A stretch of 39,395 nt of DNA from a virus. Lineage: Duplodnaviria; Caudoviricetes. Location: the IMG/VR virus record IMGVR_UViG_3300040985_000999, positions 1-39,395 of that record; one strand, 5' to 3'. The notes under the pieces are model-generated. The model made no database searches. It saw only the letters and a list, made by a program, of their open reading frames with translations, and was not told where the DNA came from. A program made the translations under genes and the position numbers. Below, in pieces: positions 12,163-37,810 of the stretch (positions are counted from its first letter, which is position 1; every line of letters begins with the position of its first letter).

Positions 12163-12419
12163 CCCGGCTCTGCCCGTTGCACTGGGCGTTGGCGGCTGAA
12201 GAGCTGGGCAACGCACTCACGCTCGATCAGCAATGGCTGGTTCGGGACTATCATCAGGCGCAGCGTAACGCGTCGCGCCTCCACATCGACAGAAACGTAT
12301 TGTGGCCAGACACTTACCCGGTAGTGAAGGGCAAAAACCCAGCTCTGTTAGCGAAACGCTGTAACCCGCAGGTTACTCTAACAGAGCTGGTGAGAGATGA
12401 CGAGCTTTGTAAGGGCTAA
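12159..12419 (+). CDS. Hypothetical protein
   Basis: GTGA overlap with the previous gene and GGGGAG SD; 3' half runs into the repeat region. Confidence 0.45.
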   Translation: MTRLCPLHWALAAEELGNALTLDQQWLVRDYHQAQRNASRLHIDRNVLWPDTYPVVKGKNPALLAKRCNPQVTLTELVRDDELCKG

Positions 12420-12554
12420 GTCCTTGAAACTAAACGGTTCACAACTCTGTTTTGCCTAGTCGCAAACAGAGCTTACAAAGAGGGAGGATTGCACAATAAA
12501 ATCAACGGTCTAGCTATACTCTGTCAGCTCTGTATATATCCCCTACGGGGATAT
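12341..12554. repeat. Cluster of (AG)CTCTGT(T) repeats in both orientations plus hairpin; putative replication origin
   Basis: AGCTCTGTT 12341, AACAGAGCT 12380 and 12465, CTCTGTT 12445, CTCTGT 12519, AGCTCTGT 12526; hairpin ATATCCCC-TAC-GGGGATAT 12536-12554; AT-rich; downstream of the primase. Confidence 0.55.
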
Positions 12555-12610
12555 GACTTGTTCGCTTGGTGCGACAGCCTCCATGGCGATACATACCGAG
12601 GAGAAAGATT

Positions 12611-12820
12611 TTGTGTGAAAATTGTAAACGGCGATTTGTAACCCAGCACGTCGCGCAGCATTCGGAGTTCGGTCTGGACGCGTTCATCGCGGGCAAATAC
12701 GACACGCTGGCGGCGGCAGGCGTCGCGCTGGTTAAATACTTTGGCAACCTGTACGAGGTCCTGCAAACCTCGACCGGCGAGGCCAGCCCCTTCCATAATT
12801 CACGGGGGAGGCAACGATGA
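12611..12820 (+). CDS. Hypothetical protein (about 69 aa, CxxC at N-terminus)
   Basis: GAGGAG SD before TTG 12611; ATGA overlap with the resolvase gene. Confidence 0.5.
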   Translation: MCENCKRRFVTQHVAQHSEFGLDAFIAGKYDTLAAAGVALVKYFGNLYEVLQTSTGEASPFHNSRGRQR

Positions 12821-13296
12821 TCATCTTGGGCATTGATCCCGGCGCGAAGGGGGGCCTCGCGGTGGTGGAGTACAAACCCGGCGAGCTGCCCGTGATCTTG
12901 GGTGGCATCCGTATGCCAACCATTATGGAGCGGACGAAGACACTCGTGGACGGCAACACGATCCTGCTCTGGGTGAAACCGTGGCACATTGATCTGACCG
13001 TGCTGGAGTGGGTCTCGGCTATGCCGAAACAGGGCGTGACGTCCAGCTTTAGCTTTGGCCGAGCGACCGGCGCTGTCGAGACGGTGGCGCGCTACAAAGG
13101 TGACCGTGTCGAGTGGGTCTCACCCGCTATGTGGAAAAATCACTTTGGTCTGAGCAAGGACAAGCGGGCCAGCATGGACAAGGCGGCCCATCTGTTTGGG
13201 GAGAGCTTCGAGTGGACGCGGAAGGCCGACGACGGCATCGCGGAGGCTGCTTTGATGACCCACTGGTTTGTAGACAAGAAGATGCATCGGTTGTAG
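12817..13296 (+). CDS. RuvC-like Holliday junction resolvase
   Basis: IILGIDPG, VLEWV, SFSFG, VSPAMWK, DGIAEAALM. Confidence 0.85.
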   Translation: MIILGIDPGAKGGLAVVEYKPGELPVILGGIRMPTIMERTKTLVDGNTILLWVKPWHIDLTVLEWVSAMPKQGVTSSFSFGRATGAVETVARYKGDRVEWVSPAMWKNHFGLSKDKRASMDKAAHLFGESFEWTRKADDGIAEAALMTHWFVDKKMHRL

Positions 13297-13307: not shown

Positions 13308-14057
13308 ATGGCCAGACAAAAACGAAAATTCTATTACACCTATGCGCTGATCGATCCGCGCACCGCCCTCCCATTTTATGTTGGAAAGGGGAGCGGCCCG
13401 CGTCTCGTTCGGCACTTCCAGAATGTCCCGAAATCGCTCGAGGGCGAGCCGGGCAGCGCCAAGTACAAGAAGATCTCCAGCATCAAGAAGGCAGGGCTAC
13501 TGCCCAAGGCGACCATCTTAGGCAACTACGACGACGAGGACCTTGCGCTCAAGGCCGAGCGTCAGCTCATAAAGTCTCTAGGCCTCGCCAAGCTCACCAA
13601 CCAAAACGCAGGCGGCGGCGGACATCGCACGACTAAGCGAGGTCAGGGTCTGACGCCTAAGCAAGAGGCGTTCTGCCACGCCCTCGCCTCTGGTAAATAT
13701 TCCAGCAACACTCAAGCGTACTGCTCGGTTTACTCCACCAAACGCATGGCGGGTAAGACGATCCACGAGGCCGTGTCGCGGCTGCTCTCAAATAGCAAGG
13801 TCGCCACAAGGATCGAAGAGCTGCGACGCCCAGCGGTGCAGAAAACCAAGGTGGACCTCGAATATGTCATCAATGGACAGCAACGTGCGGCGGAGCTGGC
13901 TGACGAGACCGGCAACGCTGGGGCGATGTCCTCCGCCTACAAGGAGTTGGGCAAACTCGTGGACGCGTACCCAGCCGAGCGTAAGCATCTCACCGTTGAC
14001 GCTGACGACCTGACAGTCCGCATCAAGGCAGGCCGAGAGAGAGCGAGGCAGAAATGA
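13308..14057 (+). CDS. GIY-YIG nuclease-like domain fused to terminase small subunit
   Basis: N-terminal YYTYALIDPR..PFYVGKG..RL..H, ALKAERQLI, LTNQNAGGGG; C-terminal LTPKQEAFC...AY...RLLSNSKVATRIEELR; just upstream of TerL. Confidence 0.75.
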   Translation: MARQKRKFYYTYALIDPRTALPFYVGKGSGPRLVRHFQNVPKSLEGEPGSAKYKKISSIKKAGLLPKATILGNYDDEDLALKAERQLIKSLGLAKLTNQNAGGGGHRTTKRGQGLTPKQEAFCHALASGKYSSNTQAYCSVYSTKRMAGKTIHEAVSRLLSNSKVATRIEELRRPAVQKTKVDLEYVINGQQRAAELADETGNAGAMSSAYKELGKLVDAYPAERKHLTVDADDLTVRIKAGRERARQK

Positions 14058-22200: not shown

Positions 22201-22791
22201 ATGGCGTCAGACGTACAGATCGCGAAGCTGGCTCTCCAGCATATTGGGGACCGGTTTGATATATCCGCCCTGACCGAGCAGTCGGTCGAGGCGGAGCAGG
22301 TCAACCTGATCTTCGACGACACGCGGGACTGGCTGCTTCGGCAGCACCCGTGGAACTTCGCGACCAAGTACGTCTCGCCTGCGGCCCTGTCAGGGACACC
22401 ACCGGCGCTCTACGACTATATGTACACCTACCCAACGGACGCTGTGCGGATCATCTCCATCACCGATCCTCTGGGCGTTAACACCATCATCAAATTTGAG
22501 GTGGCCCGGAACAGCGACAACACGCGGGTCATCCTGACCGACCAGATTGAGCCGGAGTTCAAATACACCTACCGGGAGACAACCAGCTCGCACTTCGACC
22601 CGGAGTTCACCATGGCGTTCACCTACGCCTTGGCGGCGAAGCTGGCCATGCCACTAGTGGGGGATAGGGAGCTGGCCTCCGACATGGACCTGAAGGCGCA
22701 GAGGATCATCAGCGCCGCCGAGGAGACCGACAGCAACGAAGGCTTCGCGGAGGAGGCCCCGGACGCCGACTGGATCACAGCGAGGCTTTAG
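22201..22791 (+). CDS. Tail adaptor (tail tubular protein A-like)
   Basis: IAKLAL.HIG, LLRQHPWNFA, Y.YPTD..RI, FDPEF..A...ALAAKLA.PL. Confidence 0.85.
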   Translation: MASDVQIAKLALQHIGDRFDISALTEQSVEAEQVNLIFDDTRDWLLRQHPWNFATKYVSPAALSGTPPALYDYMYTYPTDAVRIISITDPLGVNTIIKFEVARNSDNTRVILTDQIEPEFKYTYRETTSSHFDPEFTMAFTYALAAKLAMPLVGDRELASDMDLKAQRIISAAEETDSNEGFAEEAPDADWITARL

Positions 22792-25587
22792 ATGACGAGG
22801 GTCATACAATCAGCGTTGAACGGCGGCGAGGTCTCTATCGCTGTCGGCGCTCGCGTCGATATCGACAAGTACAAGACCAGTCTGGAGGAGTGCGAGAACT
22901 TCTTCGTGCAGGTCCACGGTGGCGTCTCTAATCGCAGCGGCTTCGAGTTCGTATGCGAGGCCAAGAGCGGCACCCTTTCGACGCGGATCATCCCCTTCGA
23001 GTTCAACATCGAGCAGACCTACATCATCGAGTTGGGCAATCTGTACATGCGGTTCATCAAGGACGGCGGGCAGATACTGAATGACCAGATCGTCGAGACC
23101 ATCACCGCGATCACCGCCGCCGAGCCGCCGGTCGTCACGGTCACTGGGCACAGCCTGACTGATGGGGACGCCGTCTTCATTGCTGACGTCACCGGCATGA
23201 CCCAGCTCAATGGCCGCACCTTCCTCGTCGCCAACAGCACAGCCAACACCATCGAGCTGACCGACTTCGATGGCACCGATATCGATGCGTCTGCCTACAC
23301 GGCGTACAGTGCCGCAGGGACGGCGACGCAGGTCTATCAAATCACGACGCCCTACACGACAGCGCAGCTCTTCGCGCTCAAGTTCGTGCAGAGCGCCGAC
23401 GTGATGACGATCACCCACCCGCTCCATGAACCCGCCGAGCTGACCCGCACCGATCACGACGTGTGGACGTTGAGCGACATCACCTTCGCACCGGCGCAGG
23501 CACACCCGGAGGCGGTCGCATCCGCCGCGACAACGACAGGCGCGGTGACCGAGAAGTATGTGGTGACCGCCGTCAGTCGAGACACCGGAGAGGAGAGCCT
23601 GCGCGGGGTGTCCGGCACGACCACGACGATCACCGCAGCCACTAAAGCCAACCCTGTTGTCATCACCGCCGCCGGGCACCCCTTGAGTGATCTGGACGAG
23701 GTGTTCATCACCGGCGTCGGAGGCATGACAGAGCTGAACGGCAAACGGTTCCGCGTCTCCAATAAGACGGCGAACACCTTCGAGCTTCAGACCTTCGACA
23801 AGGTGGACCTCGACGGCAGCAACTACACGACGTACACCACGGGCGGCACGGCAGCGGCGACGTACACGGTCATCTCGAACAGCGCCGTGACCAAGGACAA
23901 TGTGATTACATGGACCGACCTCCCCACCGCCGAGAGCTATAATATCTACAATGAGAAGGACGGCGTGTTTGGCTTCATTGGTCGGTCGGAGATCGATAGT
24001 TTCACCGACAACAACATCTCGCCAGACCTGACCGACACGCCGCCCAAGGCCCGCGACCCTTTTATGAGCGCAGGCGACTACCCTGCCGCTGTCGGTTACC
24101 ATCAGCAACGTCGCGGCTTCGCAGCGGGCACCAACAACCCGCAGCAACTCAACCTGACGCAGGTCGCCAACCATTTCAATCTGACGGTGTCCAGTCCCTC
24201 CAAGGACGACGACGCGATCCAAGTAACCATCGCCAGCCGCAAGGTGAACGAAATCCGCTGGCTGGTCGATCTGGGCGACCTGATCCTCCTGACCTCCGGC
24301 GGCGAGTGGAAGGTCTCCGGCGTCGATGGCGTCATCACTCCATCAGGCATCCAGATCGAGCCGCAGTCTTATTATGGGTCCGAGGAGATACCGCCGATCA
24401 CGGCAGGCGATGTCGTCATCTTCATGCAGCCCGGCTGGACGGTTCGCGACCTGACCTACAAATTCGAGACCGACGCTTATAGCGGCAACGATATCTCGGT
24501 GCTGGCCCGGCACCTATTCGACTTCAACTCCTTCACCGACTGGGCATACGCGCAGGCCCCGCACTCCATGATCTGGGCGGCGCGGGACGACGGCGTCATG
24601 CTGGCGATGACCTACAGCCGCGAGCAGGAGGTGTTCGCTTGGACCCGGCAGACGACCTTGGGCGACTTCAAATCGGTCGCGTCGGTTCGTGAGGGCGACG
24701 ATGACTACGTCTACGCGGTGGTGCAGCGGACGGTTGGAACCCGCACCGTCCAGTTTATCGAGCGGCTGCATAATCACGACATCAAGGATGTGCAGGACGC
24801 CTTCCATGTGGACAGCGGATTGAGCCTCGACACGCCGTTCACGATCACCGGCTTCACACAGGCCGATCCCATTGTGGTCACGACCGCCACGGCGCACGGC
24901 TTCTCGAACAGCGACACCGTCGATATTTCGGATATCAAGGTGGCCAGCACGGCGGCGGGCGACGTGCAGGGTTGGAAGCAATCCACCGAGCTGGACGGCT
25001 TCGGGTACACCGTCGCCAACGTCACCTCGACCACCTTCGAGGTGCAGCTCAACGGCGTGAACGTGGACGGCACCGGGTTCGACGCATACGACCAAGGAGG
25101 CAAGGTCAGGAAGGCGGTCACCGCCATCTCCGGCCTCTGGCATCTGGAAGGGGAGACCATCGTCGGACTTGCTAATGGCTATGCCACTGGGGAACTGACC
25201 GTCGCCAGCGGAGCAGTGACAATCCCCAACGCGGCTAGCCGGGTGCATCTCGGCCTCCCCTTTCAGTCCCAAATTAAGACCTTGCGTCTAGACGCAGGAA
25301 ACGCCACAGACAGTATTCAAGGCCGGAATAAGAAACTGAGCCGGTTGGCGGTGCGGTTGGAGAAGACCATGGGTCTGTGGGTCGGCCCGGACCTCGACCA
25401 CATGCACGAGGCCAAGTTCGGCCTGCCTCTGCTCTACGGTCAGGTCCTCAACATGATCGATGGCGACAAGGACGTAACCATGGGTCCGAGCTGGAACAAG
25501 GAGGGGCAGGTCATTTTGCAACAACGCGATCCGCTGCCTTGCACGATCTTGAGCCTGATCCCCGACGTCTACCTTGGGGGAAACTGA
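22792..25587 (+). CDS. Tail nozzle (tail tubular protein B-like) with three inserted repeat domains
   Basis: QSALNGGEVS, IIPFEFN, VQSADVM, QEVFAWTR; three IT.IT.A.P.VVT..GH.L.D.D.V.I repeats. Confidence 0.88.
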   Translation: MTRVIQSALNGGEVSIAVGARVDIDKYKTSLEECENFFVQVHGGVSNRSGFEFVCEAKSGTLSTRIIPFEFNIEQTYIIELGNLYMRFIKDGGQILNDQIVETITAITAAEPPVVTVTGHSLTDGDAVFIADVTGMTQLNGRTFLVANSTANTIELTDFDGTDIDASAYTAYSAAGTATQVYQITTPYTTAQLFALKFVQSADVMTITHPLHEPAELTRTDHDVWTLSDITFAPAQAHPEAVASAATTTGAVTEKYVVTAVSRDTGEESLRGVSGTTTTITAATKANPVVITAAGHPLSDLDEVFITGVGGMTELNGKRFRVSNKTANTFELQTFDKVDLDGSNYTTYTTGGTAAATYTVISNSAVTKDNVITWTDLPTAESYNIYNEKDGVFGFIGRSEIDSFTDNNISPDLTDTPPKARDPFMSAGDYPAAVGYHQQRRGFAAGTNNPQQLNLTQVANHFNLTVSSPSKDDDAIQVTIASRKVNEIRWLVDLGDLILLTSGGEWKVSGVDGVITPSGIQIEPQSYYGSEEIPPITAGDVVIFMQPGWTVRDLTYKFETDAYSGNDISVLARHLFDFNSFTDWAYAQAPHSMIWAARDDGVMLAMTYSREQEVFAWTRQTTLGDFKSVASVREGDDDYVYAVVQRTVGTRTVQFIERLHNHDIKDVQDAFHVDSGLSLDTPFTITGFTQADPIVVTTATAHGFSNSDTVDISDIKVASTAAGDVQGWKQSTELDGFGYTVANVTSTTFEVQLNGVNVDGTGFDAYDQGGKVRKAVTAISGLWHLEGETIVGLANGYATGELTVASGAVTIPNAASRVHLGLPFQSQIKTLRLDAGNATDSIQGRNKKLSRLAVRLEKTMGLWVGPDLDHMHEAKFGLPLLYGQVLNMIDGDKDVTMGPSWNKEGQVILQQRDPLPCTILSLIPDVYLGGN

Positions 25588-26036
25588 TGATTCGTAAAAT
25601 GCTCCTCGCTGACGTGGAGAAGGTGGTGGTGCTGGGCGCGGTCATGCACGCCGAGAGTATGCTGTCCGCGTGGCCCCTCAACCTTGAACGGGCGCTGGCC
25701 GTCCTCGAAGGGACGCTGGGGCTGGACACGACCTTCGCCTATGTCTCGGAGGAGGAGAACGGCGACATCACCGGGGCGCTGATCGGGGAGCTATCCATGC
25801 ACATGGTGGTCGATGTCCAGATCGCCACGGAGCATCTCTTCTATGTGGACCCGGAGGCGCGAGGCGGCTTCGCCGCTGTCCGGTTGATCGACGCCTTTGA
25901 CACGTGGGCTACCCTTGTGGGGGCCAGCCTGATCAGCATCCAAGTGGACGCTGGGATCAATAACGACCGCACTATGGACTTCCTTCATCGTCAGGGCTTT
26001 GCGGATCATGGCGTGTACATGACGAGGGAGGTGTAA
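25587..26036 (+). CDS. GNAT-family acetyltransferase-like virion-module protein
   Basis: MIRKM...D, FYVDPEARGG..A.RLI, FL.R.GF; TGATG overlap. Confidence 0.8.
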   Translation: MIRKMLLADVEKVVVLGAVMHAESMLSAWPLNLERALAVLEGTLGLDTTFAYVSEEENGDITGALIGELSMHMVVDVQIATEHLFYVDPEARGGFAAVRLIDAFDTWATLVGASLISIQVDAGINNDRTMDFLHRQGFADHGVYMTREV

Positions 26037-26037
26037 C

Positions 26038-26565
26038 ATGGGCGTAGCAATGGCAGGCATGGCTCTTTCAGCCATGAGTGCGATCTCCGGTGCCGTGGCG
26101 GCCCGACAGCAATCCCAAGCACGGCAGGATCAGGCCAACTATCAGGCCGCCGTCCAGCGGAACAACGCCATCATCGCCCGGCAGGACGCCGAGGCGATCC
26201 GCAAGCGGACCGCGGTCAAGGAGGCCGACCGGAAGCTCCTCGGAGAGGGCACCATTAGTGGAGCTAGAGCGCAGCAAGCGTCGCAAGGCTTCCTCGTGGA
26301 TGATGCGTCGGTTGGGGCGACCAACACGAGCCTGCTCGCGGACATCAGGGAGCAGACCGCGATAGATGTCGCCCGCATCAAGGACCAAGGCGATCTGGAT
26401 ATCCGGGCGACGCTGATTGGCGCGAGCAACTCGGAGGCGCAGGCAGGCCTACTCGACCTCAAGGCCGATCAGGAGAACCCCGGACTGGCCGGAGGCGCGA
26501 CGCTGCTCGCGGGCGCGGCCAAGACCATCAGCGTCGGCAAGAGCCTCGGCGCGTTCAAGGGATAG
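26038..26565 (+). CDS. Small internal virion (ejection) protein
   Basis: Hydrophobic A/G-rich termini, central Q/A-rich helix; position equivalent to T7 gp14. Confidence 0.7.
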   Translation: MGVAMAGMALSAMSAISGAVAARQQSQARQDQANYQAAVQRNNAIIARQDAEAIRKRTAVKEADRKLLGEGTISGARAQQASQGFLVDDASVGATNTSLLADIREQTAIDVARIKDQGDLDIRATLIGASNSEAQAGLLDLKADQENPGLAGGATLLAGAAKTISVGKSLGAFKG

Positions 26566-26573
26566 GGGGCATC

Positions 26574-28643
26574 ATGGCTACTGGACGAAATGGTATAACG
26601 GTTCCGGGTCGCTTGGGCGACGTCGCCCTGCGTACCGATCCCAAGACCCCACTCCAGAATTTCGACGTCCCCCTGCTTGATGGCGGTGTCGAGGGCCTGA
26701 AGCAATTCGCCGGTGCTGCCGACGAGGCGCTGGGTTTATTGCAGGGCATCAAGAAGGACGAAGACGACGCGAACGCCTTGGACCTTGAGCGCAAGATGAT
26801 CACGTTCGCCCAAGACGAGCGGGCGGCTTACAAGACCCCGCTAGCGTCGGGTCCTGTGGACGAGGACGGTAAATCTACTTTTGGGTCCGACCGCAGCGCA
26901 CTAGGCAAAGCCGCCAACAAGGAGTGGTTCACCGACCAGATGGGCCGGATTAAAACCCATATGGATGGCCTTCGGTCCAGCTCGGAGTATCAGGGTCTAG
27001 GACAGGCGGCCCAGAACGCCGTCGATCAGAGTATTCAAGGCAAGGAGCTGAAGTTCCGCAACGAGGCGCTCATGCACTGGCGTGAGCAGGCCCGATTGAA
27101 CAAGACGGCCAACATCGAGGCCAGCGCCACGGTGGCGGGCAATGAGGCCGTGGCTAATGCACCGTCCCCGGAGCTGGCGCATGATAGCCTCACGCGCCTC
27201 TTCAGCCACATGAACGCCGGGTTCAATCACGCCAACGGCACGACCTTGAAAGAACCGGCCAATAAACTGGTCGCGCAGCGGGCGCTGGATCAGGTCGCCA
27301 ATACCAGCATCGAGAACCTCCTCCAGACCGACCAGCCCGGTCGCGTCGCGCAGGCCGAGGCGTGGTTGCTGGAGAACAACAAGGTCACCCATAATTTTCT
27401 GGATGGGACGTCGGTCGATATCCGCCTGACGCCGAACGTCGTGAAGGACTTGCAAAACAAAATCCGAAAGACCGGCGAGGGCGAGCTGGCCCGCAAGGTG
27501 GGCAACGACCTCTTCAAGCTCCATCAAGACGACAGCATCGCCGCCCGTGCAGAGATCGAGAAGAACGCAGCCGGGTACTCGACCGAGGTCATCGAGAACG
27601 CCTTCGCGCAGTATGAGAGCCGCCGGTCCAACACCACGAATGCGAACGACCGCTTGGATCAGGACCAATACGACGCGGCCTCTCGATACGTCCAAAAGAA
27701 CTTCAAGCTCCCTGATGCCAGTGCGATGGACCGGTTGACGGGTGGGGAGGTATCAACTTTGAAGGCGCTCCTGAAGGAGGCGGAGCAGGATAAAATGCTC
27801 GGGGAGGACCATCCCAGCAACTACGGCGTCGTCATAAGATTGGCCGGGCTGACCGAGACAGAGTTGCGGGGCTACAGCCAAGCCGAGTTCATAAAAGATA
27901 TCGCGATGCACCTGAACAAAAAGGACGGCACGCGAGAGAGGGCCATGGACGAATGGACCTCCGCGCAGAACAGTGGGTCGCAAGCCGTCGCCCTGCGGGC
28001 CGGTAAAGACACGCGAGCGCGGATCAAGGCGCAGGCTCTGCTCGTGCGGAACGCCTACACGGACGGCACCAAATACTTCACCGCGCAGGCCAAGCGGTCG
28101 GCCGCGATCCGGTTCAAGGGCAGCGGGGCCACGGTCTCGGCAAAGCGGGCGAACTTCGTCTTACAGGCGGAGCGGGAGTGGACGCAGTCCCATAGCCGCG
28201 ACCAGCCACTGAGCAATGATCAGGCCAACAAGATGCTGGCCCGACTGAACTCGCAGGTCTACTTCGACGGCGAGAATGTGAGCCTGTTCGAGCTGCTACC
28301 TCAGATCACCGACGAGGACGGCGATCCCATCTTGGGACCAGACGCCATCAACAAGGCGTTCGACTTCGTTGCGCCGGAGATGCGCTTCGAGCTGATCGAG
28401 GCTTATCGAAAAGAGCGGTCAAAGACGAAGGGTAACGTCGAGGCGGAGATGGCCCAGCCGATCCCTGCGTCGGCGCTCCGGGGCTACTACAAGAAGCTGG
28501 TGCTCGACAACCCGTATTCGTCGATCAAGCCAGCTGCTCGGAAGTTCATCATCGATAAACTGACGAGAGGGACCAATAAACCTTCGACGGCCCAAGTCGA
28601 GCATTACTATGTGAATAACCTACTGATGCAGGCGGTGCGCTGA
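26574..28643 (+). CDS. Medium internal virion (ejection) protein
   Basis: 689 aa, alanine-rich helical; lies between the small and giant ejection proteins. Confidence 0.65.
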   Translation: MATGRNGITVPGRLGDVALRTDPKTPLQNFDVPLLDGGVEGLKQFAGAADEALGLLQGIKKDEDDANALDLERKMITFAQDERAAYKTPLASGPVDEDGKSTFGSDRSALGKAANKEWFTDQMGRIKTHMDGLRSSSEYQGLGQAAQNAVDQSIQGKELKFRNEALMHWREQARLNKTANIEASATVAGNEAVANAPSPELAHDSLTRLFSHMNAGFNHANGTTLKEPANKLVAQRALDQVANTSIENLLQTDQPGRVAQAEAWLLENNKVTHNFLDGTSVDIRLTPNVVKDLQNKIRKTGEGELARKVGNDLFKLHQDDSIAARAEIEKNAAGYSTEVIENAFAQYESRRSNTTNANDRLDQDQYDAASRYVQKNFKLPDASAMDRLTGGEVSTLKALLKEAEQDKMLGEDHPSNYGVVIRLAGLTETELRGYSQAEFIKDIAMHLNKKDGTRERAMDEWTSAQNSGSQAVALRAGKDTRARIKAQALLVRNAYTDGTKYFTAQAKRSAAIRFKGSGATVSAKRANFVLQAEREWTQSHSRDQPLSNDQANKMLARLNSQVYFDGENVSLFELLPQITDEDGDPILGPDAINKAFDFVAPEMRFELIEAYRKERSKTKGNVEAEMAQPIPASALRGYYKKLVLDNPYSSIKPAARKFIIDKLTRGTNKPSTAQVEHYYVNNLLMQAVR

Positions 28644-31600
28644 TGGCAGAGTTCAACCCGCTTATAAGCACGCCGCTGCCGGTCGGTATAGACCCGGAGG
28701 AGCATGAGACGGCACCGTTGCCGGACGCGCTCACGCCACAGCCTACAGCCAAGACGCGGAAGGCGACCGAGGTCGTCGATCTTCAGAAGCGCCGGGACGA
28801 GACCGTCCACTCTGCGGTGGCGGCGGATATGGCGGGCGCGACCGAGGTGAACCCGGACCAGTTCGCCAGCCTGCGTAAGATGGCGACCGAGGTGAACCTC
28901 GACACCCGCATCCTTCTGGGCGACGTGGAGCCGGAAAACATCCGGTCCCAGCATGTGGTCAAACAGACGCAGGAGATGCTGAAAGAGAACCCGCGTATCG
29001 AGAACTTCCTGCGCGACCCGGAAAACACCCGGCTGGTGCATGATGACCTCCGCGCCTTGCGGTATGTCTACCAGTCGATCCGCGAGCTGCAAGAAAGCGA
29101 GCAGCACGAGGGCGTTCTCGACGCGGCCAAGGGGACGTTCGATGCGACCATCGGAGGTTTTGGGAGGTCCGTCGAAGGGACCAACCTCGCGATCTTGGAG
29201 CAGCAACCACGGGGCCTCCTGTTCGCGGAGGCGGTCAATGAGTTGACCGAGGACGAGCGGATCGCGTTTGGCAAACTGCCCGCCGAGGAGCAGATCGGCT
29301 TCCTGCTTAACACCAACGAGAAGTTCAAGGCGGGGCACGAAAAGACCCAGACCGCGATCAAAACCAGCCAAGAAGACCTGACCGCCATCGAGCGTGAGCT
29401 GAACCAAATCCGGGCGCGGGTTGGGACCAGCACGACAGCCTTCTACGCGAACGCCATCGGTGAAGCGGTCGGCGGCATGATCCCGGCCATCGCCGTTGGT
29501 CTGGTCACGCGCAACCCCATGCTGGCGCAGACCATCATGTTCGGGCAGGCCTTCGGTAACCGGTACGCGCAGGCGACCTTGCGCGACGGCTTCGACAGCA
29601 ATCCGAATGCACGGGCCAACGAGGCGCTGACGTTCGCCGCTCTGGAGTTCTTCTCGGAGAAGGTGCCGTTGGGCATCCTCTTGAGCGAGAACGGGCGCGG
29701 CATGAAGGGCATCTTCAAATCGATGGGTGCCGAGGCGGTGCAGGAAACCTTCATCGAGTACATGGATATCGGCTTCGAGCTGGGCTACCTCGACAAAGAG
29801 ATGACGGTGGGCGACGCCCTCGAACGGCTGCGCGACGCTGCGATCATAGGTGCCGGTGCGGGCGGGACGCTGCGCGGCGGCATCCAAGGTATGCGCCGAC
29901 TGGCCGAGATCGGCGGGATGCGACGAGAAGAAGACGACGCCGAGGACCACGCCGCGAAACTGACCGCCGCCCAGCAAGCCGTCAAAGAGGCGAAGCTGTC
30001 GGCCCGGTCAGAAGTGAAGATGCGCGAGTTCATCGAAGAGGCGGGCGAGGGCACCACGGTGTCGATCTCCGCCGAGGACGTGGTCGAGCTGCAACAGTCC
30101 GGTGTTCTGACCGACGCCGACATGGCCGACCTCGAACTCACCGAGGCGCTGGCCGAGGCTCTGGTCCTGAACGGTGATATCGAAATCTCGACCGCCAAGA
30201 TGCTCACCCTGCAAGAGGCGACGCAGACCGAGCTGATCCGGCGGGTCCGGCAGGACAGTAGCAAAATGTCGGTCAAGGAGGCCGAGGATCAGCTCGCGGA
30301 GCGCGATGAGCTGATTAAGCGTCTAGTCGAAGAGGCGCAGACGCGCTTACAGGACGATCCCGACCACACCCCTATCTCTGATGCGGTGGCTGAACAGCTC
30401 CGCTCTATCGGCATCTTCAGCGAGGAGGAGGTCCAGCAAACGGCCCAGCTCGCGGAGGAGAGCTATGGCCCGCGTGCAGCGAACCTCGAAGGCGTCAGTG
30501 CTTTCGAGCTGTTCCTCGAAGAAAACGTCCAGCTCCGGGGACCGGCGGATACCCAGCGCAACGCCGCGACGGTCGCGCTGAACCAGACCTCCTTAGCGTT
30601 GGGCGTGAACCCTGAAGACCTGCGGCAGCAACTCGCACGATCCGGGGGTGAGATCAGGAAGACCGAGGCGTTCTTGAACTGGTTCGGAGACGGTGTTCTT
30701 GTGGACGCGGACGGCCTCGCCGTGCCTTGGGTCCACGGCACCGCCAGTGACATCCGCGCCTTCGAGGCGTTTGCCACCAGCAACGTAACCGCCTTTTTCT
30801 CACGCGACCCGATCTTCGCTGAGGGGTTCGCTGACGAGTGGGCTGAAGCGAAATCGAGAGACAACGCGGGAGACGATGCAGTGCTTCGGCGCCCGTTTCA
30901 GTTCGATGATGGCGTCCGGGCCAACCTTGTGCCCGTCTTCCTCAATGTGAAGAACCCCTTCGACCCTGAAAACGAAGCACACGTCCAGACCCTGATCGAC
31001 TATATCGCTGGCGAGCAGGGATTAGAGCCGTTAGGGGAGGCCTCCCTCCATCACCTCCGCTCCGGGGACTTTGTCCAACTGGCCGCTGTCAGCTATGAGA
31101 TCGAGGCGGCGGGTTTTGACAGCTACTTCGAGCAGGAAAACGGACAACGTAATATTGCGGTGTTCGAGCCGACCGCGATCAAGTCGCCGTTCAATCAAGG
31201 AACCTTCGATCCCAACGTCGCGGACATCCTGAAGCAGTCCGCGCAGTCGCTCACGGACACCGAGAACTTCAGGGTGTGGTTTGGAGACAGTGTCGTCGTA
31301 GACGAGGATGGGCAGCCGCTGGTTGTTTACCACGGCAGCCCGGAGGTCTTCGACACCTTCGACCCGGACGCTGTTCCTGATCGAGGGGGCCTCGTTGCTT
31401 TCGTGACCTCCGACCGCACTTTTGCGGAGGGGTATGCCAGCGACGGTCGGGGGAACGTCTTGGAGCTGTACGCTTCCATCCAGAACCCATTCGACTTCCG
31501 CACTGATTGGGCCATGGCCCAGAGCTTCTGGGAAGAGACCGGAGGTATATTCGATCAGTTCGAGATCGACCGGATCGCGCAGGGTCTGGGCACCTTTGTC

Positions 31601-34600
31601 GAGGGGCAGCCTGCTACACTCACGGAGGAGGAGTTCGTCGGCGCGGTCAAGGAAGGATCGTGGGACGCACTGGAGGCCCCGGAGTTTGCCCAGTGGCTCA
31701 ATGAGGGCGGGCACGACGGCGTTGTCCTGATGGAGAACGAGGCGATCAATTATGGCGTTTTTGAGGCGGAGCAACTCAAGTCGGTGAACAACCAAGGTGA
31801 GTTCTCCGACGCTGCGGGCACCAGCATATTCGAGCAATCCGACGTCCTCGTAGGTACACAGGCAGACCGTGTCGATGCCGCCATCGCAGCTAAACCAAAA
31901 GGTATGGCTGACGGCACGAAGCATGGCGTCCTACCCCACCTCCGGTCACTGGCCGAGGAGGACCCCTCCACCAGCAAAGCGTCGTTGATGCTGAAGACAA
32001 CCAACGCCAACGCGCAGCGGCAGCTCGACGCCATCGACAGCATCTTGGAGAACCACCCAGACGCGCATACCAGCCCAGAAGCATGGGCGGCGATGATGGC
32101 CGAGGCGTATGGATCAAGGGACGTTCCCATGTCCCCCTATCGGTTCATCAACGACATCACTGGCCAAGGGGCTATCGACGGGCTGTCCCGTCTATCGCCG
32201 GGTCAGATCGAGGATGCGGACCATGGCTTCGAGAACGCTGCCGAGTTCAGGGAGGCATACACGTCAGGCGCGTTGGGTGTCGATACGACAGGCAAGTTGT
32301 TCCTGTGGTCCTTCTTATCAAGGGGCGTCAGCCCTTACACGCAGGAGAGCCTGTTCATAGACGCCTTCGATGGCATCGATCCATGGCTCCAAGCCGCCGC
32401 TGACGGCAACTTCGATGTCGATGCGTATGCAGAATGGGCAAAGTCCGCTGCGCCTAAAGGAAGCGGGCAACCGGGTGCGGGCGCGACCCATAACTTAAAC
32501 GCCTTCGGTAAAGACTTTCTGGTCAAAATGGCGCAGGACAGTGGGGATGGTCGCTCACGTCTACAGCTCCTGCACGACCTGATGGCAGACCCCAAGGCTA
32601 CAGGCAAACAAGTCCGTCGAGCGTTCGCCACCTTCGGTGAGGGTGTCGGCATCGATAACAAGGTGGTGTCCTTCACTTTGTTGGTGGCGGGTTTCAGTGA
32701 TGTCATGGTCCTCGACCGGGTGCAGTTCCGGCAACTGTATGACGATGGCCGGTTCGCTGGGATCAACCTGTACGACGGTATGAAGAAGGAAGGTAAACCC
32801 GTGACCGGCACCTCCTTCGCCAAGCAGGGCGACGGCGTGCGGGGCATCTTCATCTATGAAGCGATGGAGCGGGCCATTGAAGCGCGGATCGACGAGATAT
32901 ACACCGCGCTGGGTCGAGAAGGGGAAGGGTCGGTCGGTCGATACCATTGGGAGACATGGGTCGCGGACAGCGAGCAGGAGGCCAGCCATGGTAGCCTTGG
33001 GGCCATCCTCCCCGACGCGCTTGGTAACGAGAATGCGATCAATGAGGTCACGGCGAAACAGGGGGAATATGGGTCATACGCTTACGGCGCACGGTATGGT
33101 GTCGACGGTTCCGGCAATGGCTTCTTCCTTTATAACTCGGTATCTGCTAAAACTTACATATTCACGGTCGAGCAGTTTGTAGACTTCCAGACCGAGGTGA
33201 AGAAGCCCGCCAATGGCGTTGTTCCCACAGGCTTCAAAGTAACGGAGAGCGGTAATGCCCCATGGCATCAAAGAGACGACGTCAGCGGAGACGCCCTTGA
33301 AGCCCTCGCTGCAAAAATCGCGGAAGGCCCAGCGGGCACGCAGCAAGGAACTGTTCGCAAAGATGGGAAGAACGAAACGCTTCCCGACCGACCTGCAACC
33401 GATCAGCCCGGCAGCCCTCTCGAACAAGACCCCAACGCCCGCCGCCAAGGCGTAGGCGGATCGTTCCGGCAGGAGCAGGACGCCTACGGCAACATCGCCA
33501 ATGTAATCTCGTTCACGAAGGACGCTGACCGCACGACCTTCCTCCACGAGCTGGGTCACTTCTGGCTCTTCCAGATGCACAAGGACATGGCCGATCCGCG
33601 CCTCACCGAGGCCGGGCGTGTTCGCCTTGAGCAGATGATGGGTTCCACCAAGTCGTGGTTCAAGAAGAACTCGAAGGACGCGTGGCGCGACATCCAGAAG
33701 ATTGCCGACGCTGCCGAGGCCGAGGCGGTGAAGAAACCTGACAACGGGAGCTTCCGCCTGAAGGCCGACCGCCTGAAGGCAGCCGTCGCCCACGCCAAGA
33801 AGAACGGCGGGGCCAAATACATGGAGACCGTCGCGGACGGCTTCATGGACGGCAGCGTCGAGCAGGGCACCGACCTCGAAGTCGGCTTCCACGAGCTGTG
33901 GGCGCGCGGCGTCGAGAGCTGGCTGGGCGAGGGCCGCGCACCGAGCAGCGGAATGCGCCGGGCCTTCACGTCGTTCTCGACGTGGGTCATCGGAACCTAC
34001 AAGCGGCTGCGGAACCTGAACGTCGAGCTGGACGCCGAGATCAGGGACGTCTTCGACCGGCTGGTCGCGACCGACGAGGAGATCGCCTACGAGCGGGACC
34101 GGGCGCTGTACACGATCCCGCAAGAGATCAGGGACGCAGCGACGCCAGCGGAGCTGGCCCAGATCGAGGCCGCCGAGATCGAGGCCATCCACGAGGCCCG
34201 CGCCCAGATGCAGGGCAAGGTGGCGGCGGAGCTGAAGAGGGAGCGCACGGTCGAGTACAAGACCAGCAAGGAACGCCTCACCTCGACGACGCTGGAGGAC
34301 ATCCAGTCCCGGCCCCTATACAAGGCCCTGAACATTTTGAGGACCGGCGGCGACGTCAATACCGAGGCTGTCTTCCTCGACAGGGCCGAATTTATCGCCC
34401 TGTACGGGCAGGAGAAGGCCAAGGCCATGCCTCCTCGTGTTTTCGGGGGCAAGGATAGCGACAGGATCAACTTGCCTCTCCTCGCGCAACTGAGCGGGTT
34501 TGAGGGGCAAGATCAGATGGTGGAGGCGCTCACAACGCCGCACCCCAGCGAGGCAGCTCTGCTTGAGGCCGAGGTGAACGCCGCCCTGCGCGAGCAGTTC

Positions 34601-37600
34601 GGATCGCTACTGGACCCCGACAAACTGGCCGACGAGGCCCAAGAGGTCGTCCAGAACGACAAAATGGTCGAATTAATGGCCATTCAGGCCCGTCTGGTCC
34701 GGCGATTGGCCAAGGAACCCCTCCAAAACGCCGCTCAACGCCGCGCATTGGACGAGGGAGCGCCCTTAGACGCCAAGGTGGACCGAGAGGCCGTCGAGGA
34801 CGAGCAGGCCGTTGCTGGGCTGGCTGAGAGCCAAGAGGATGCGATCCCCGGCGAATTGCGGGTCGCGCAGACCCAAGCACAGAAGGAAGCGAACAAGACC
34901 CAGCGGGTCGCCCAGCGGGCCGCCGTTCGCCGACTCAAGGACCTGACCCGGTCTTTGGACCTCAAAGGCATCAAGGCGGCGGCCAAGGAGATCGTCGCCC
35001 GGATGAAGGTCGGCAAGATCACGCCGCAGAAGTTCCGGCAGACGGCGGATCGTCTGGCCAAGAAAGCCCACCTCGCCATCGCGGGCCGGGACTACGCCGC
35101 CGCTGCCGATCTTCTGGAGCAGCGCACCCTGAATTTGGAGATCGCTCGCGAGGCGCAGGAGAAGCGGACGAAGATCGACCGCCGGGTCAAAGCCGTCCGC
35201 AAGATACTGGGCCGCATCGACACGGAGCTGAAGGGCTACAACATCGATGTCCTGACCGCCGTTCGTCTGATGCTGGAACCCTATGGTCTGGCCAGCGAGA
35301 ACCCCAGCAACCTGCCTGCCAAGGACGTGATCGCGCTGCTCGCGGAGGTCGAGCCGGAGATGGCCACTGGCATGGAGAAGGTGATCCGCGATGTCGCCGT
35401 CGCAGCCGCGCCGTATATCGAGGCGACCGGCAACGACCGGCCCTATCGCGAGATGCCCCTCGAACTGTTCGAGACCCTGATGGACACGGCCCAGAGCTAC
35501 ATCGCTCTGGCCCGCGACATGAAGACCGTCCTGATCGACGGTCGCCGGGTGCAGTTCGACACCGTGGCCGACGAGCTGGCCCAGTCCACCGCCGATCTGG
35601 ATCGGTCTCACCTCCCCGCTCTGGGCAAAGGCACCGAGCGGGAGCGCAACGCCATTGGCTGGCGTGGCACTATCCGCACCTATGGCCGACGCGTCGAGGC
35701 GTGGGCGCGAAGTATCGACGGTGGCGACGACGGCCCGATCCAGAAGTACTTCACCCGACCGGTGATGAAAGCCGTCGATGCCTACTACGCGGCGAAGCTG
35801 CCCCTGATGAACAGGGTCTTGGAGATCATCGAACCCCAGAACGACGAGCTGGCCGCACCGACGGCGATCAAGGCCGACGAACTGGGCGGGTACACCTTCC
35901 GCACCAAGGGCGAGCTGCTTCACTGGATGTTGCACACAGGCAACGAGAGCAACATACGGAAGCTCCTGATCGGGGGTGCTGTCGATGTCGGGAACAATGT
36001 GGTCTACCAGTGGACCGAGATGAACGACCCACGCGACGAGGTGAATACCGACAAGGCGGATGCGTTCATCCGGCGGATGTTCTCGACCGGTGTCCTGACG
36101 GCGCAGGACGTGCAAACGCTGAACTCGATTTGGGCCTTGTTCGAGGAAACCAAGGGTGGGGCGCAGCAAGCACACCACCAGATGCACGGCCACTACTTCG
36201 ACACGGTCGGGGCCACCCCTCGGCAGACGCCGTTCGGTGAGCTGACCGGCGGTTATGTCCCGGCGCTGACTGACCCTCTGATGAACCCGGACGGCCTGCG
36301 GCAGGAGCAAGCCGATCAACTAGGCAACGCCCAGCACGCCGCGATGTTCCCCGGAGCCGAGGATGGCTTCACCAAAGGCCGGGTGGACTACAACCAGCCG
36401 CTGGCGCTAGACCTCCGTATGCTCCCCCTGCATCTGGACAAGGTGTTGAAGTTTACGCATCTAGGCCCGCCGATCCGCTCGGCGGCCCAGCTACTGGTCA
36501 ACCGGCGGTTCGCCGCCACCCTCAACCGCGTGGACCGATATGCCATCAACGGCATACTGGAGCCGTGGCTCCGGCGCACGGCCCGACAGTCGCTATCGGA
36601 GCCGGGCAACCGGCATCTGGATAGCTTCTTCAGGGCGCTGTCCCAGCGGATCGGCGTGCAGACCATGGCGGGCAACATCGTGAACACCGCCCAGCAATTC
36701 ACTGGCGTTATCACTGCCTTCAGTCGGCTGCCCATGGGGGTGGTTTTGAAGAACTTCGGACGGTTCCAGAAGGACGGTCAAGGGACTTTGAAGTACATTG
36801 AGGGCCGGTCAAATTACATGACCAACCGCTTTCGTAATTCGGTCAACGACGTGGCCGAAAACATCAACGCCGTTCTCACCGACGCGACCCCTCTGGGTAA
36901 GCTGCAATATTACGCGAACAAATTTGGCTACATCACGCAGCAACTCGCGCAGAACGCCATCGACCCTGCGGTCTGGTTAGGTGCGGAGGAACACGCTCAC
37001 AACAACGGCCTGTGGCAGCAAGTTTATGACGCACACCTCCCCTTGGGGCGGGACATCGCCTATGAGAAGGCGCAGGCGGCTTCGGCTCTGTATGCCGACG
37101 AAATCGTCCGGGCGACCCAGACACCGCTGGGGCCGCAGGACGTCAGTCGAGGCGAGGCGTCCGGGGCGTTCACCCGGCTGTTCTTCAAGTTCGCGGGCTA
37201 CTTCAACAATATGGCCAACCTGTCTCTGACCGAGGCGCAAGTGATCATGCGGGACATCGGCTTCAAGGGTAACAAACCCGGTCGTCTGCTATGGCTGTAC
37301 CTGTCGGTGATCGCGGTCCCGTCCATCGTGGCGGAGGGGATCTCCATGGCCGCCTCCGGCGACTTCGACGACATGGATGAGAACGAGGCGGAGGAGAACA
37401 TACGGATATGGCTGAACCTCTTCGCCGTATCTCAAGTCAAAATGGTGAGCAACTTCGTCCCCGGTGTCGGCGGGGCTGTGTCGTGGGCTGTCGGACAGAC
37501 GACCGAGCAATTCTACGACGACCGTTTGAGCCTCTCCCCGGTACTGTCCATTGGCGAGGCCTCCCTATCAGCGGGGGCCGGTGTGGCCGAGGATGCTTAT

Positions 37601-37810
37601 AACAGCCTCACCGACAGTGATGGGCGGCCTCTGGCACGAACCCTCAAGGACACCCTGACCTTCGCCGGTCTTCTACTGGGCCTGCCCACCAACTGGTTCT
37701 CGAAACCCGCCAGCTACGCGCTGAAGGTCAAGGAGGGGCAGGCCGACCCAGAGGGTGTTCTCGATTGGGTGCAGGGATATCTGCGCGGGCGAGACGGGAC
37801 CGAGGACTAG
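28643..37810 (+). CDS. Giant internal virion/ejection polyvalent protein (3055 aa): 2x ART-PolyVal-like, HhH-GPD-like, zincin metallopeptidase
   Basis: F..WFGD...VD.DG....HG twice; GIDNKVVSF.LL..G..D..VLD; TFLHELGH...HELWARG; position equivalent to T7 gp16. Confidence 0.85.
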   Translation: MAEFNPLISTPLPVGIDPEEHETAPLPDALTPQPTAKTRKATEVVDLQKRRDETVHSAVAADMAGATEVNPDQFASLRKMATEVNLDTRILLGDVEPENIRSQHVVKQTQEMLKENPRIENFLRDPENTRLVHDDLRALRYVYQSIRELQESEQHEGVLDAAKGTFDATIGGFGRSVEGTNLAILEQQPRGLLFAEAVNELTEDERIAFGKLPAEEQIGFLLNTNEKFKAGHEKTQTAIKTSQEDLTAIERELNQIRARVGTSTTAFYANAIGEAVGGMIPAIAVGLVTRNPMLAQTIMFGQAFGNRYAQATLRDGFDSNPNARANEALTFAALEFFSEKVPLGILLSENGRGMKGIFKSMGAEAVQETFIEYMDIGFELGYLDKEMTVGDALERLRDAAIIGAGAGGTLRGGIQGMRRLAEIGGMRREEDDAEDHAAKLTAAQQAVKEAKLSARSEVKMREFIEEAGEGTTVSISAEDVVELQQSGVLTDADMADLELTEALAEALVLNGDIEISTAKMLTLQEATQTELIRRVRQDSSKMSVKEAEDQLAERDELIKRLVEEAQTRLQDDPDHTPISDAVAEQLRSIGIFSEEEVQQTAQLAEESYGPRAANLEGVSAFELFLEENVQLRGPADTQRNAATVALNQTSLALGVNPEDLRQQLARSGGEIRKTEAFLNWFGDGVLVDADGLAVPWVHGTASDIRAFEAFATSNVTAFFSRDPIFAEGFADEWAEAKSRDNAGDDAVLRRPFQFDDGVRANLVPVFLNVKNPFDPENEAHVQTLIDYIAGEQGLEPLGEASLHHLRSGDFVQLAAVSYEIEAAGFDSYFEQENGQRNIAVFEPTAIKSPFNQGTFDPNVADILKQSAQSLTDTENFRVWFGDSVVVDEDGQPLVVYHGSPEVFDTFDPDAVPDRGGLVAFVTSDRTFAEGYASDGRGNVLELYASIQNPFDFRTDWAMAQSFWEETGGIFDQFEIDRIAQGLGTFVEGQPATLTEEEFVGAVKEGSWDALEAPEFAQWLNEGGHDGVVLMENEAINYGVFEAEQLKSVNNQGEFSDAAGTSIFEQSDVLVGTQADRVDAAIAAKPKGMADGTKHGVLPHLRSLAEEDPSTSKASLMLKTTNANAQRQLDAIDSILENHPDAHTSPEAWAAMMAEAYGSRDVPMSPYRFINDITGQGAIDGLSRLSPGQIEDADHGFENAAEFREAYTSGALGVDTTGKLFLWSFLSRGVSPYTQESLFIDAFDGIDPWLQAAADGNFDVDAYAEWAKSAAPKGSGQPGAGATHNLNAFGKDFLVKMAQDSGDGRSRLQLLHDLMADPKATGKQVRRAFATFGEGVGIDNKVVSFTLLVAGFSDVMVLDRVQFRQLYDDGRFAGINLYDGMKKEGKPVTGTSFAKQGDGVRGIFIYEAMERAIEARIDEIYTALGREGEGSVGRYHWETWVADSEQEASHGSLGAILPDALGNENAINEVTAKQGEYGSYAYGARYGVDGSGNGFFLYNSVSAKTYIFTVEQFVDFQTEVKKPANGVVPTGFKVTESGNAPWHQRDDVSGDALEALAAKIAEGPAGTQQGTVRKDGKNETLPDRPATDQPGSPLEQDPNARRQGVGGSFRQEQDAYGNIANVISFTKDADRTTFLHELGHFWLFQMHKDMADPRLTEAGRVRLEQMMGSTKSWFKKNSKDAWRDIQKIADAAEAEAVKKPDNGSFRLKADRLKAAVAHAKKNGGAKYMETVADGFMDGSVEQGTDLEVGFHELWARGVESWLGEGRAPSSGMRRAFTSFSTWVIGTYKRLRNLNVELDAEIRDVFDRLVATDEEIAYERDRALYTIPQEIRDAATPAELAQIEAAEIEAIHEARAQMQGKVAAELKRERTVEYKTSKERLTSTTLEDIQSRPLYKALNILRTGGDVNTEAVFLDRAEFIALYGQEKAKAMPPRVFGGKDSDRINLPLLAQLSGFEGQDQMVEALTTPHPSEAALLEAEVNAALREQFGSLLDPDKLADEAQEVVQNDKMVELMAIQARLVRRLAKEPLQNAAQRRALDEGAPLDAKVDREAVEDEQAVAGLAESQEDAIPGELRVAQTQAQKEANKTQRVAQRAAVRRLKDLTRSLDLKGIKAAAKEIVARMKVGKITPQKFRQTADRLAKKAHLAIAGRDYAAAADLLEQRTLNLEIAREAQEKRTKIDRRVKAVRKILGRIDTELKGYNIDVLTAVRLMLEPYGLASENPSNLPAKDVIALLAEVEPEMATGMEKVIRDVAVAAAPYIEATGNDRPYREMPLELFETLMDTAQSYIALARDMKTVLIDGRRVQFDTVADELAQSTADLDRSHLPALGKGTERERNAIGWRGTIRTYGRRVEAWARSIDGGDDGPIQKYFTRPVMKAVDAYYAAKLPLMNRVLEIIEPQNDELAAPTAIKADELGGYTFRTKGELLHWMLHTGNESNIRKLLIGGAVDVGNNVVYQWTEMNDPRDEVNTDKADAFIRRMFSTGVLTAQDVQTLNSIWALFEETKGGAQQAHHQMHGHYFDTVGATPRQTPFGELTGGYVPALTDPLMNPDGLRQEQADQLGNAQHAAMFPGAEDGFTKGRVDYNQPLALDLRMLPLHLDKVLKFTHLGPPIRSAAQLLVNRRFAATLNRVDRYAINGILEPWLRRTARQSLSEPGNRHLDSFFRALSQRIGVQTMAGNIVNTAQQFTGVITAFSRLPMGVVLKNFGRFQKDGQGTLKYIEGRSNYMTNRFRNSVNDVAENINAVLTDATPLGKLQYYANKFGYITQQLAQNAIDPAVWLGAEEHAHNNGLWQQVYDAHLPLGRDIAYEKAQAASALYADEIVRATQTPLGPQDVSRGEASGAFTRLFFKFAGYFNNMANLSLTEAQVIMRDIGFKGNKPGRLLWLYLSVIAVPSIVAEGISMAASGDFDDMDENEAEENIRIWLNLFAVSQVKMVSNFVPGVGGAVSWAVGQTTEQFYDDRLSLSPVLSIGEASLSAGAGVAEDAYNSLTDSDGRPLARTLKDTLTFAGLLLGLPTNWFSKPASYALKVKEGQADPEGVLDWVQGYLRGRDGTED

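Follow-up and report, generated by a model that had tools for sequence, protein, structure and literature searches.

The window, i.e., the whole stretch of DNA analysed here, is a virus record of 39.4 kb that CheckV rates as 90% complete; its structural genes are of the BPP-1/epsilon15-like podophage type, as annotated with Pfam and PHROG. All features described below lie on the plus strand. An upstream cassette (22201..28643), composed of two tail genes, a GNAT gene, a T7 gp14-like gene, and an unannotated 689-aa gene in the gp15 position, leads into an open reading frame at 28643..37810, and a tail fibre gene is located downstream of this frame. The 3055-aa product is a polyvalent ejection protein of the IVP-D (T7 gp16-like) type and a homolog of Bbp10 of phage BPP-1 (tblastn E 6e-9, blastp E 2e-49). 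It contains an LPD22 domain at aa 61-151 (28823..29095; PF18834, E 9.5e-9), two ART-PolyVal cargo domains at aa 688-850 (30704..31192; PF18760, E 1.9e-11) and aa 887-1052 (31301..31798; PF18760), a HELGH zincin-like peptidase motif at aa 1635-1639 (33545..33559), and a C-terminal IVP-D scaffold (34886..37792), which is recognized by phrog_9880 at aa 2082-3050 and by tblastn homology to Bbp10. The homology to Bbp10, the position in the cassette, and the polyvalent domains all agree with the IVP-D/polyvalent assignment. Bbp10 is listed as a T7 IVP-D homolog in Table 2 of PMC4819975, a bioinformatic assignment, and proteins of the IVP-D type are described in that paper as bearing cytoplasmic cargo. 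A first-pass annotation had placed a DNA-glycosylase-like domain within a virion ejection protein, and the Bbp10 homology supports this placement, making the carrier a putative internal-virion (IVP-D) homolog. On the same grounds, the carrier is likely to be packaged and ejected with the genome.

The glycosylase module itself occupies aa 1087-1565 (31901..33337), these limits being given by homolog coverage, and AlphaFold2 (AF2) predicts it to be a single rigid unit. The motifs listed in the first-pass annotation occur in the order described (aa 1218-1231, 1334-1363, 1405-1412, and 1432-1439). The limits proposed there, aa 1066-1595, are wider than the conserved region and coincide exactly with two [LF]xQ junction motifs, which are discussed below. 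Searches scoring about 8,000 candidates each yield at least 339 long and at least 109 short proteins bearing the module. Clustering at 50% identity gives 484 clusters at an E-value of 0.001 and 345 at 1e-30, with a profile that took in the flanks. The module has 388 matches on viral contigs and is found at seven loci in GTDB genomes, all of them in metagenome-assembled records, while none of 50,697 GenBank phage records contains it and no cultured carrier is found there. Direct scans against the families of Pfam, PHROG, NCBIfam, and PADLOC give no match to the module (DUF7178, PF23802, included among the Pfam families), and searches of the PDB sequences with the single sequence or with a long profile return chance matches only.

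The AF2 model of the module (pLDDT 92.7, pTM 0.92) has the two-lobed all-helical fold of the glycosylases. The top five rows of a Foldseek search with this model are all Ogg2 chains, at E-values of only 0.015-0.07. In the structural alignments with VIA-align, the best match is 3knt (Z 15.6, rmsd 3.0, 203 of 206 residues aligned), and a comparable result is obtained for 3n0u (Z 15.3, rmsd 3.2, 207 of 209 aligned). Ranks 1-22 are taken by HhH glycosylases or a related queuine-salvage enzyme, with Z-scores of 14.6-15.6 for the Ogg2 structures versus at most 10.9 for all others. The alignments to 3n0u and 3knt delimit an Ogg2-like HhH-GPD core at approximately aa 1169-1449 (32147..32989). A profile of the core searched against the PDB sequences has M. 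jannaschii Ogg2 (MjOgg) as top match (E 0.011), with the catalytic Lys and Asp in register, and the same register is returned by hhalign against three Ogg2-like proteins, where the match is weak (probability 0.8%, E 0.074). A language-model atlas returned clusters in which 17-27% of the members bear PF22175. Scans of more than ten homologs with PF22175 give a best score of 14.6 bits against a cut-off of 27, and the curated cut-offs of PF22175 and PRK01229 are not reached by the module. Taken as a prediction, an HhH-GPD fold is virtually certain, and the fold comparison that the first-pass annotation had proposed as a check thus upholds its assignment, with the Ogg2 enzymes as the nearest structures. 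The core is followed by a conserved C-terminal extension (32990..33337), consisting of a three-stranded sheet and helices, with no recognised fold match; folded alone (pLDDT 75.9), it has no match at Z of 5 or more, from which novelty of the fold does not follow.

In the alignment with MjOgg, K1340 (codon AAG, 32660..32662) corresponds to K129, the residue mutated to Gln in 3knt, and is the predicted Schiff-base lysine, while D1358 (codon GAC, 32714..32716) corresponds to D147 and is the predicted catalytic aspartate. The spacing of 18 residues and the codon positions 32660 and 32714 that had been reported for the pair are correct. K1340 is located where the second HhH helix begins, a position of the bifunctional type, and an Asp-Lys dyad is the mark of bifunctional enzymes (PMC13490550). 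From the whole-fold and sequence alignments, we infer that the two residues lie in one active-site pocket. The hairpin is found by the Ogg2 alignment at G1336-I-D-N-K1340, flanked by model helices 235-245 and 253-262, rather than at the GVG named in the first-pass annotation. Its second Gly is replaced by Asp in 320 of 349 sequences and retained in 6. The absence of Fe-S cysteines, also claimed there, holds for the entire 3055-aa protein, which contains no Cys at all, and the [4Fe-4S] cysteine motif of Nth/MutY is accordingly absent. The core has a net charge of -15, and the residue after D-R is V/I where His is expected; together with the Asp of the hairpin, these features make the binding of the DNA backbone less typical.

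Conservation was evaluated for a set of 355 proteins; the searches behind it were word-seeded, which favours motif-bearing sequences, and used the best 150 profile matches, so that degenerate members may be under-sampled. Lack of conservation of the dyad, which had been named as a refuting observation, is not seen, as Lys and Asp are each present in 349 of the 349 proteins spanning those columns. Taken with the fold and the profile match to MjOgg, this puts the motif layout beyond chance. Conservation alone does not single out the dyad, because 36 positions are conserved at 98% or more, K1340 and D1358 being two of these. Many of the 36 are structural, as would be expected if the domain were catalytically dead and served the ejection machine by binding DNA or as a structural part. 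However, the 349 sequences, which extend down to about 33% identity, contain no substitution of either residue, and orthologous scaffolds lack the module, which is thus dispensable for ejection. We regard a dead domain as very improbable, and the module as likely to be catalytically active, with a predicted glycosylase/AP-lyase activity.

Another possibility is that the fold has been reused for a different task, the module acting on a free nucleotide or RNA in a queuine-salvage-like manner, on abasic sites only, or in a group transfer to DNA similar to gp46/PUGT. The longest alignment to the model is that of the queuine-salvage enzyme (259 residues, Z 10.0, rmsd 4.9), and the acidic core, the non-canonical hairpin, and about 270 extra conserved residues would be consistent with such reuse, as would the AP-lyase activity that is retained by truncated Ogg2 (PMC3397491). 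However, the Ogg2 structures score 5 Z units higher, the HhH-fold thymidine hypermodification enzyme gp46/PUGT reaches a Z of only 4.1, the arginine/phenylalanine positions of the HhH and the D-R positions agree with Ogg2, and partner modification genes were not found among the scanned carrier genes. Reuse of this kind is considered improbable.

The base-reading pocket was mapped in 3knt numbering, giving the equivalences F1344 = H133, R1359 = R148, W1439 = W198, and H1435 = D194, where the register of D194 was bridged via L090 and relies on the D-x3-W spacing. PF22175 occurs in none of 251 genomes of the phylum of G002 and in 11 of 301 genomes of the phylum of G005, from which the bridge sequences come. 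In the bridged alignments, H1435 takes the place of the guanine reader D194 and W1439 that of the stacking W198 (32945..32959), with His in 344 and Trp in 345 of 345 sequences. In MjOgg, D194 is the counterpart of the N1-binding Gln of OGG1; Ogg2 and AGOG read the guanine edge with an Asp, OGG1 with a Gln (PMC3397491). The position of the C-terminal sensor K207 of Ogg2 is occupied by H1449 (32987..32989; 345/345), as model residue 363 superposes on chain residue 207 in four of four Ogg2 entries. The carboxylate of K207 is the 8-oxoG sensor that reads N7-H, and loss of K207 abolishes 8-oxoG excision (PMC3397491). Unlike the terminal K207, H1449 is internal, since the chain runs on beyond it. 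Because both specificity positions are near-invariant His and the residues for catalysis and stacking are retained, we read the module as a putative working HhH-GPD enzyme with a substrate other than that of Ogg2.

The replacements of D194 by H1435 and of K207 by H1449 argue against 8-oxoG, one of the substrates suggested in the first-pass annotation, being read in the manner of Ogg2. A plain glycosylase for 8-oxoguanine or oxidised guanine would require that the sensor has re-evolved, with H1449 substituting for the terminal carboxylate. Ogg2 is clearly the nearest structure, the stacking Trp is retained, Phe at K+4 is also found in AGOG, itself an 8-oxoG enzyme, and the three OGG subfamilies differ in their sensors (PMC3397491), all of which would be compatible with this explanation. 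Against it stand the guanine-edge reader, which is Asp or Gln in the known enzymes and His here, the loss of 8-oxoG excision by Ogg2 devoid of its terminal Lys, and the PF22175 scores well under the cut-off. It has, in our view, only a small chance of being correct.

Compared with the Ogg2 enzymes (MjOgg 3knt/3fhf, Tm1821 3n0u, SsOgg 3fhg; PF22175), the module thus has the same whole fold, the K-18-D dyad, and the stacking Trp, and neither has an Fe-S cluster or the A-domain of OGG1. It differs in having His for D194, an internal His for the C-terminal K207, Phe for H133, and Asp for Gly in the hairpin, in its size (ca. 480 versus 207 aa), in being fused into a virion-protein homolog, and in falling under the family cut-off. 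Judged from its sequence, the module is predicted to work like Ogg2 yet is outside Ogg2 membership.

The scaffold of the carrier is common to DC33, Ab9, BPP-1 Bbp10, OANV1 gp16, and BL94 gp37, all five of which are without the module; the cargo in DC33, Ab9, and Bbp10 consists of ART, GNAT, or PBECR domains. Because it is missing from orthologous scaffolds, the module is an accessory that is not needed for ejection. One locus was found in a scan of IMG/VR for close scaffolds lacking it. Among 87 loci, the module is part of large structural-region ORFs and tail-ejection cassettes. Eight loci were annotated with PHROGs, one of them (L004) remaining mostly unannotated, and in these the module is found in split ejection genes of the epsilon15 type, adjacent to genes annotated as 'DNA ejection protein' (L041, L068), in a large scaffold protein that has phrog_14770 in common (L052), in an InPase/methylase polyvalent protein in the terminase-portal interval (L002), and as a 629-aa ORF within a head cluster (L074). 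The module thus turns up again on unrelated scaffolds, and these settings speak for delivery by the virion. A MuF identity considered for the L002 protein was rejected, the match being to InPase. The module forms the protein end in 34 of 272 full-length cases. ART-PolyVal domains accompany it in 51 of 120 proteins by hand count; with a more stringent phmmer criterion, the figure is 18 of 113. We have also considered an obligate mark-and-cut scheme with the ART domains, and rejected it, as ART occurs in a subset of the carriers and is present without the module in DC33.

The junction motifs flanking the module are FEQ at aa 1063-1065 (31829..31837), a candidate peptidase site, and LEQ at aa 1593-1595 (33419..33427). 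Similar [LF]xQ motifs are also seen at aa 863 and 1608. The pattern [LF][FYENKR]Q was picked after viewing the junctions of the present protein. Among dereplicated long carriers, it is found in the 70 aa preceding the module in 38 of 81 cases, where shuffling gives a mean of 8.8 and a maximum of 17, and in the 70 aa following it in 39 of 74 cases (shuffled mean 9.1, maximum 17); within 40 aa upstream, the motif is found in 37 of the 81. The matches are most numerous in the two 40-aa bins directly next to the module, with 39 upstream and 38 downstream in 81 carriers, compared to 3-23 in the other flanking bins and an expectation of 3.5-6.2 per bin derived from module and scaffold. An HExxH motif follows within 400 aa downstream of the module in 60 of 113 long carriers. 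Of 37 proteins having the peptidase motif, 28 also contain the junction motif, as do 9 of the 44 that lack a peptidase motif, a link that is confounded by scaffold kinship. Zincin domains of polyvalent proteins have been proposed to release cargo (PMC5512222). That [LF]xQ flanks the module and co-occurs with HExxH suggests that the module may be freed by cleavage at these sites, which we predict to take place after the Gln.

As to the target, the unannotated genes of 16 near-complete carriers were scanned for hypermodification enzymes. No QueC, FolE, PurZ, thymidylate synthase, glycosyltransferase, or other base-hypermodification Pfam family was found among the 274 of 449 ORF-cluster representatives covered, obtained by crude ORF calling with one member per cluster and leaving out singletons below 130 aa and some large ORFs. 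A scenario in which a phage with a modified genome excises the normal bases of its host was rejected on the basis of these 274 representatives. A sequence-specific glycosylase was likewise rejected, as no 2- to 6-mer is avoided by all 22 carriers. With neither a hypermodification family in the carriers nor a motif avoided by all, a normal base is unlikely as the target, which is probably a non-canonical base.

A C5 methylase is fused to the module protein in P0075 and forms a separate gene cluster in at least two carrier genomes. Methylated bases had also been put forward as substrates in the first-pass annotation; of these, 5-methylcytosine is argued against, solely for the carriers that encode a C5 methylase. 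Two carrier genomes (G557 and G565) contain integrases, and some carriers appear to be temperate; an enzyme that attacked the host chromosome in general would fit poorly with the integrases. The window has 3 GANTC sites versus about 55 expected, and no CCWGG. GANTC is, however, depleted at least as strongly in the non-carriers OANV1 (0 of 148 expected) and BL94 (0 of 109 expected), and in 34 of 74 carrier rows the observed/expected ratio is 0.75 or higher; the same split is known for pelagiphages (PMC9516812). GANTC-m6A was rejected as the target, since the depletion is common to non-carrier alphaproteobacterial phages, and it points to an alphaproteobacterial host of the window rather than to what the enzyme acts on.

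The explanation that we favour, with somewhat less than even confidence, is that an injected glycosylase/AP lyase clears a non-canonical base, probably not 8-oxoguanine, from the entering phage genome before its expression. The Bbp10/IVP-D polyvalent carrier would be packaged in few copies and ejected, after which the HExxH peptidase would cut the flanking [LF]xQ sites and free the module. F1344 and W1439 are predicted to sandwich the flipped base, with H1435 and H1449 reading it, while the K1340/D1358 dyad would excise it and nick the strand. The gap would then be filled by the base-excision repair of the host, and damage that arose in the virion, or a mark installed by the host, would be cleared ahead of early transcription. 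Few copies of a T7 gp16-type ejection protein presumably arrive in the cell, and few copies of a slow enzyme would suit one genome. Common lesions are already handled by glycosylases of the host, which leaves the gain from a repair cargo uncertain. The chlorovirus repair glycosylase PDG is expressed early and is not packaged (PMC7019647); since early expression is enough in that case, the fusion to an ejection protein suggests that the activity is needed before expression. The reasons for favouring the entering genome as the substrate are the link of the domain to delivery, its arrival in few copies, its occurrence in some seemingly temperate carriers, and the early expression of PDG.

Alternatively, the module may act in trans, as a phage-borne equivalent of Dag or Brig that cuts a modified base from the DNA of a competitor phage or of the host, with clustered nicks breaking it. 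Dag1 is a bifunctional HhH glycosylase directed against 7-deazaguanine phage DNA (bioRxiv 10.1101/2025.10.29.685425), and Brig3 excises 5hmC. Action in trans gains from the attack of Dag1/Dag2 on modified phage DNA and from the sibling cargoes, as other cargoes of polyvalent proteins have been interpreted as conflict effectors (PMC5512222). Release by the peptidase at the [LF]xQ sites would allow diffusion to other DNA, and the carrier genomes are seemingly unmodified; the missing modification genes do not separate the two readings, being equally compatible with both. On the other hand, Dag1 requires D184, four residues before W188, where the module has His at the same spacing (344/345), the avoidance of GANTC gives no support in view of the non-carriers above, some carriers encode C5 methylases or integrases, and packaging is unnecessary for competition. 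We consider action in trans an appreciable possibility, though unlikely.

Several known systems share parts of this arrangement. Dag1/Dag2 resemble the module in using an HhH fold in phage-host conflict and in their Lys, Asp, and stacking Trp, whereas they, like Brig3, are host-encoded and stand-alone; the Asp-x3-Trp of Dag1 and the His-x3-Trp of the module are compared by spacing only (bioRxiv 10.1101/2025.10.29.685425). The polyvalent proteins of PMC5512222 likewise combine LPD22, ART-PolyVal, and HExxH in a single chain, but here no LPD family of Pfam covers the module. A swappable cargo of an ejection protein is also exemplified by the N4 virion RNA polymerase (PMC4819975). T4 DenV and chlorovirus PDG are virus-encoded base-excision enzymes as well. 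Their fold presumably differs from that of the module. The word 'glycosylase' is absent from the main texts of PMC5512222, the supplements of which may list further domains, and PMC9503650, and it occurs once in PMC7824862, for T4 endonuclease V. In line with the first-pass annotation, to which no such domain characterised in an ejection protein was known, none was found in searches of the open-licence PMC and bioRxiv literature. That the module is an HhH-GPD family used as ejection-protein cargo is well supported, and this family is apparently undescribed.

A broader and more speculative proposal, which we hold to be possible but doubtful, is that a glycosylase family of new specificity, with a two-histidine pocket, has been loaded repeatedly into ejection proteins by several podophage lineages, is self-cleaved at [LF]xQ, and within the first minutes of infection erases a host-installed mark or destroys rival modified genomes, so that base excision would serve as an injected weapon in the conflict of phage and host. 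The use of glycosylases by bacteria as weapons against phages has been demonstrated recently. If the present interpretation is true, glycosylase chemistry would be found on the phage side as well, delivered ahead of gene expression, and the cargoes known for ejection proteins would gain an enzyme class. From the rebuilt pocket, a new specificity for the base is predicted, which is of relevance to tools for DNA damage and modification, and the self-processing that has been proposed for polyvalent proteins becomes open to a direct test through the [LF]xQ junction motif.

Each cargo junction of the giant ejection protein carries an [LF]xQ motif (window positions 31229-31237, 31829-31837, 33419-33427, and 33464-33472), which is a candidate self-cleavage signal. 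The motif scan shows that it is likewise present in the scaffold relatives Bbp10, DC33, and OANV1 gp16.

In other carriers, domain scans place the predicted Ogg2-like glycosylase module in a single chain with a C5 DNA methylase (P0075, aa 1509-1820) or with a RadC/JAB domain (P0081, aa 884-993). At the related locus L002, the gene immediately downstream of the module-bearing one (12412-13035) matches the PHROG annotation "DNA endonuclease V".

Weak BFVD structure matches were also obtained in other large phage proteins (A0A6J7WE55, A0A6J5LC27, A0A6J7WBL0_2, A0A6J5P8Z9_3, and others), part of which are ART-PolyVal-like, and these matches hint at additional HhH cargo families. Bacterial PF22175 proteins (L088, 1426-2142; L089, 1426-2112, minus strand; L090, 1411-2121) retain the Asp-x3-Trp but lack the C-terminal Lys with which Ogg2 enzymes end at the corresponding site.

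Elsewhere in the window, Pfam and PHROG identify an anti-restriction-like ArdC-N plus MPTase gene (7238-8104, minus strand), and Pfam a terminase small subunit with a fused GIY-YIG domain (13308-14057, plus strand). Family scans, including Pfam and PHROG, gave no convincing match for a 177-aa ORF (6046-6579, minus strand), whose His-x-Thr near the N-terminus may resemble the pattern of ART-fold enzymes.

According to word counts over positions 1-39395, GANTC occurs at 3 sites (306, 25589, and 34932) versus ~55 expected, CCWGG is absent, and several 6-bp palindromes are almost missing. This scarcity suggests that the virus infects an alphaproteobacterial host and avoids restriction.
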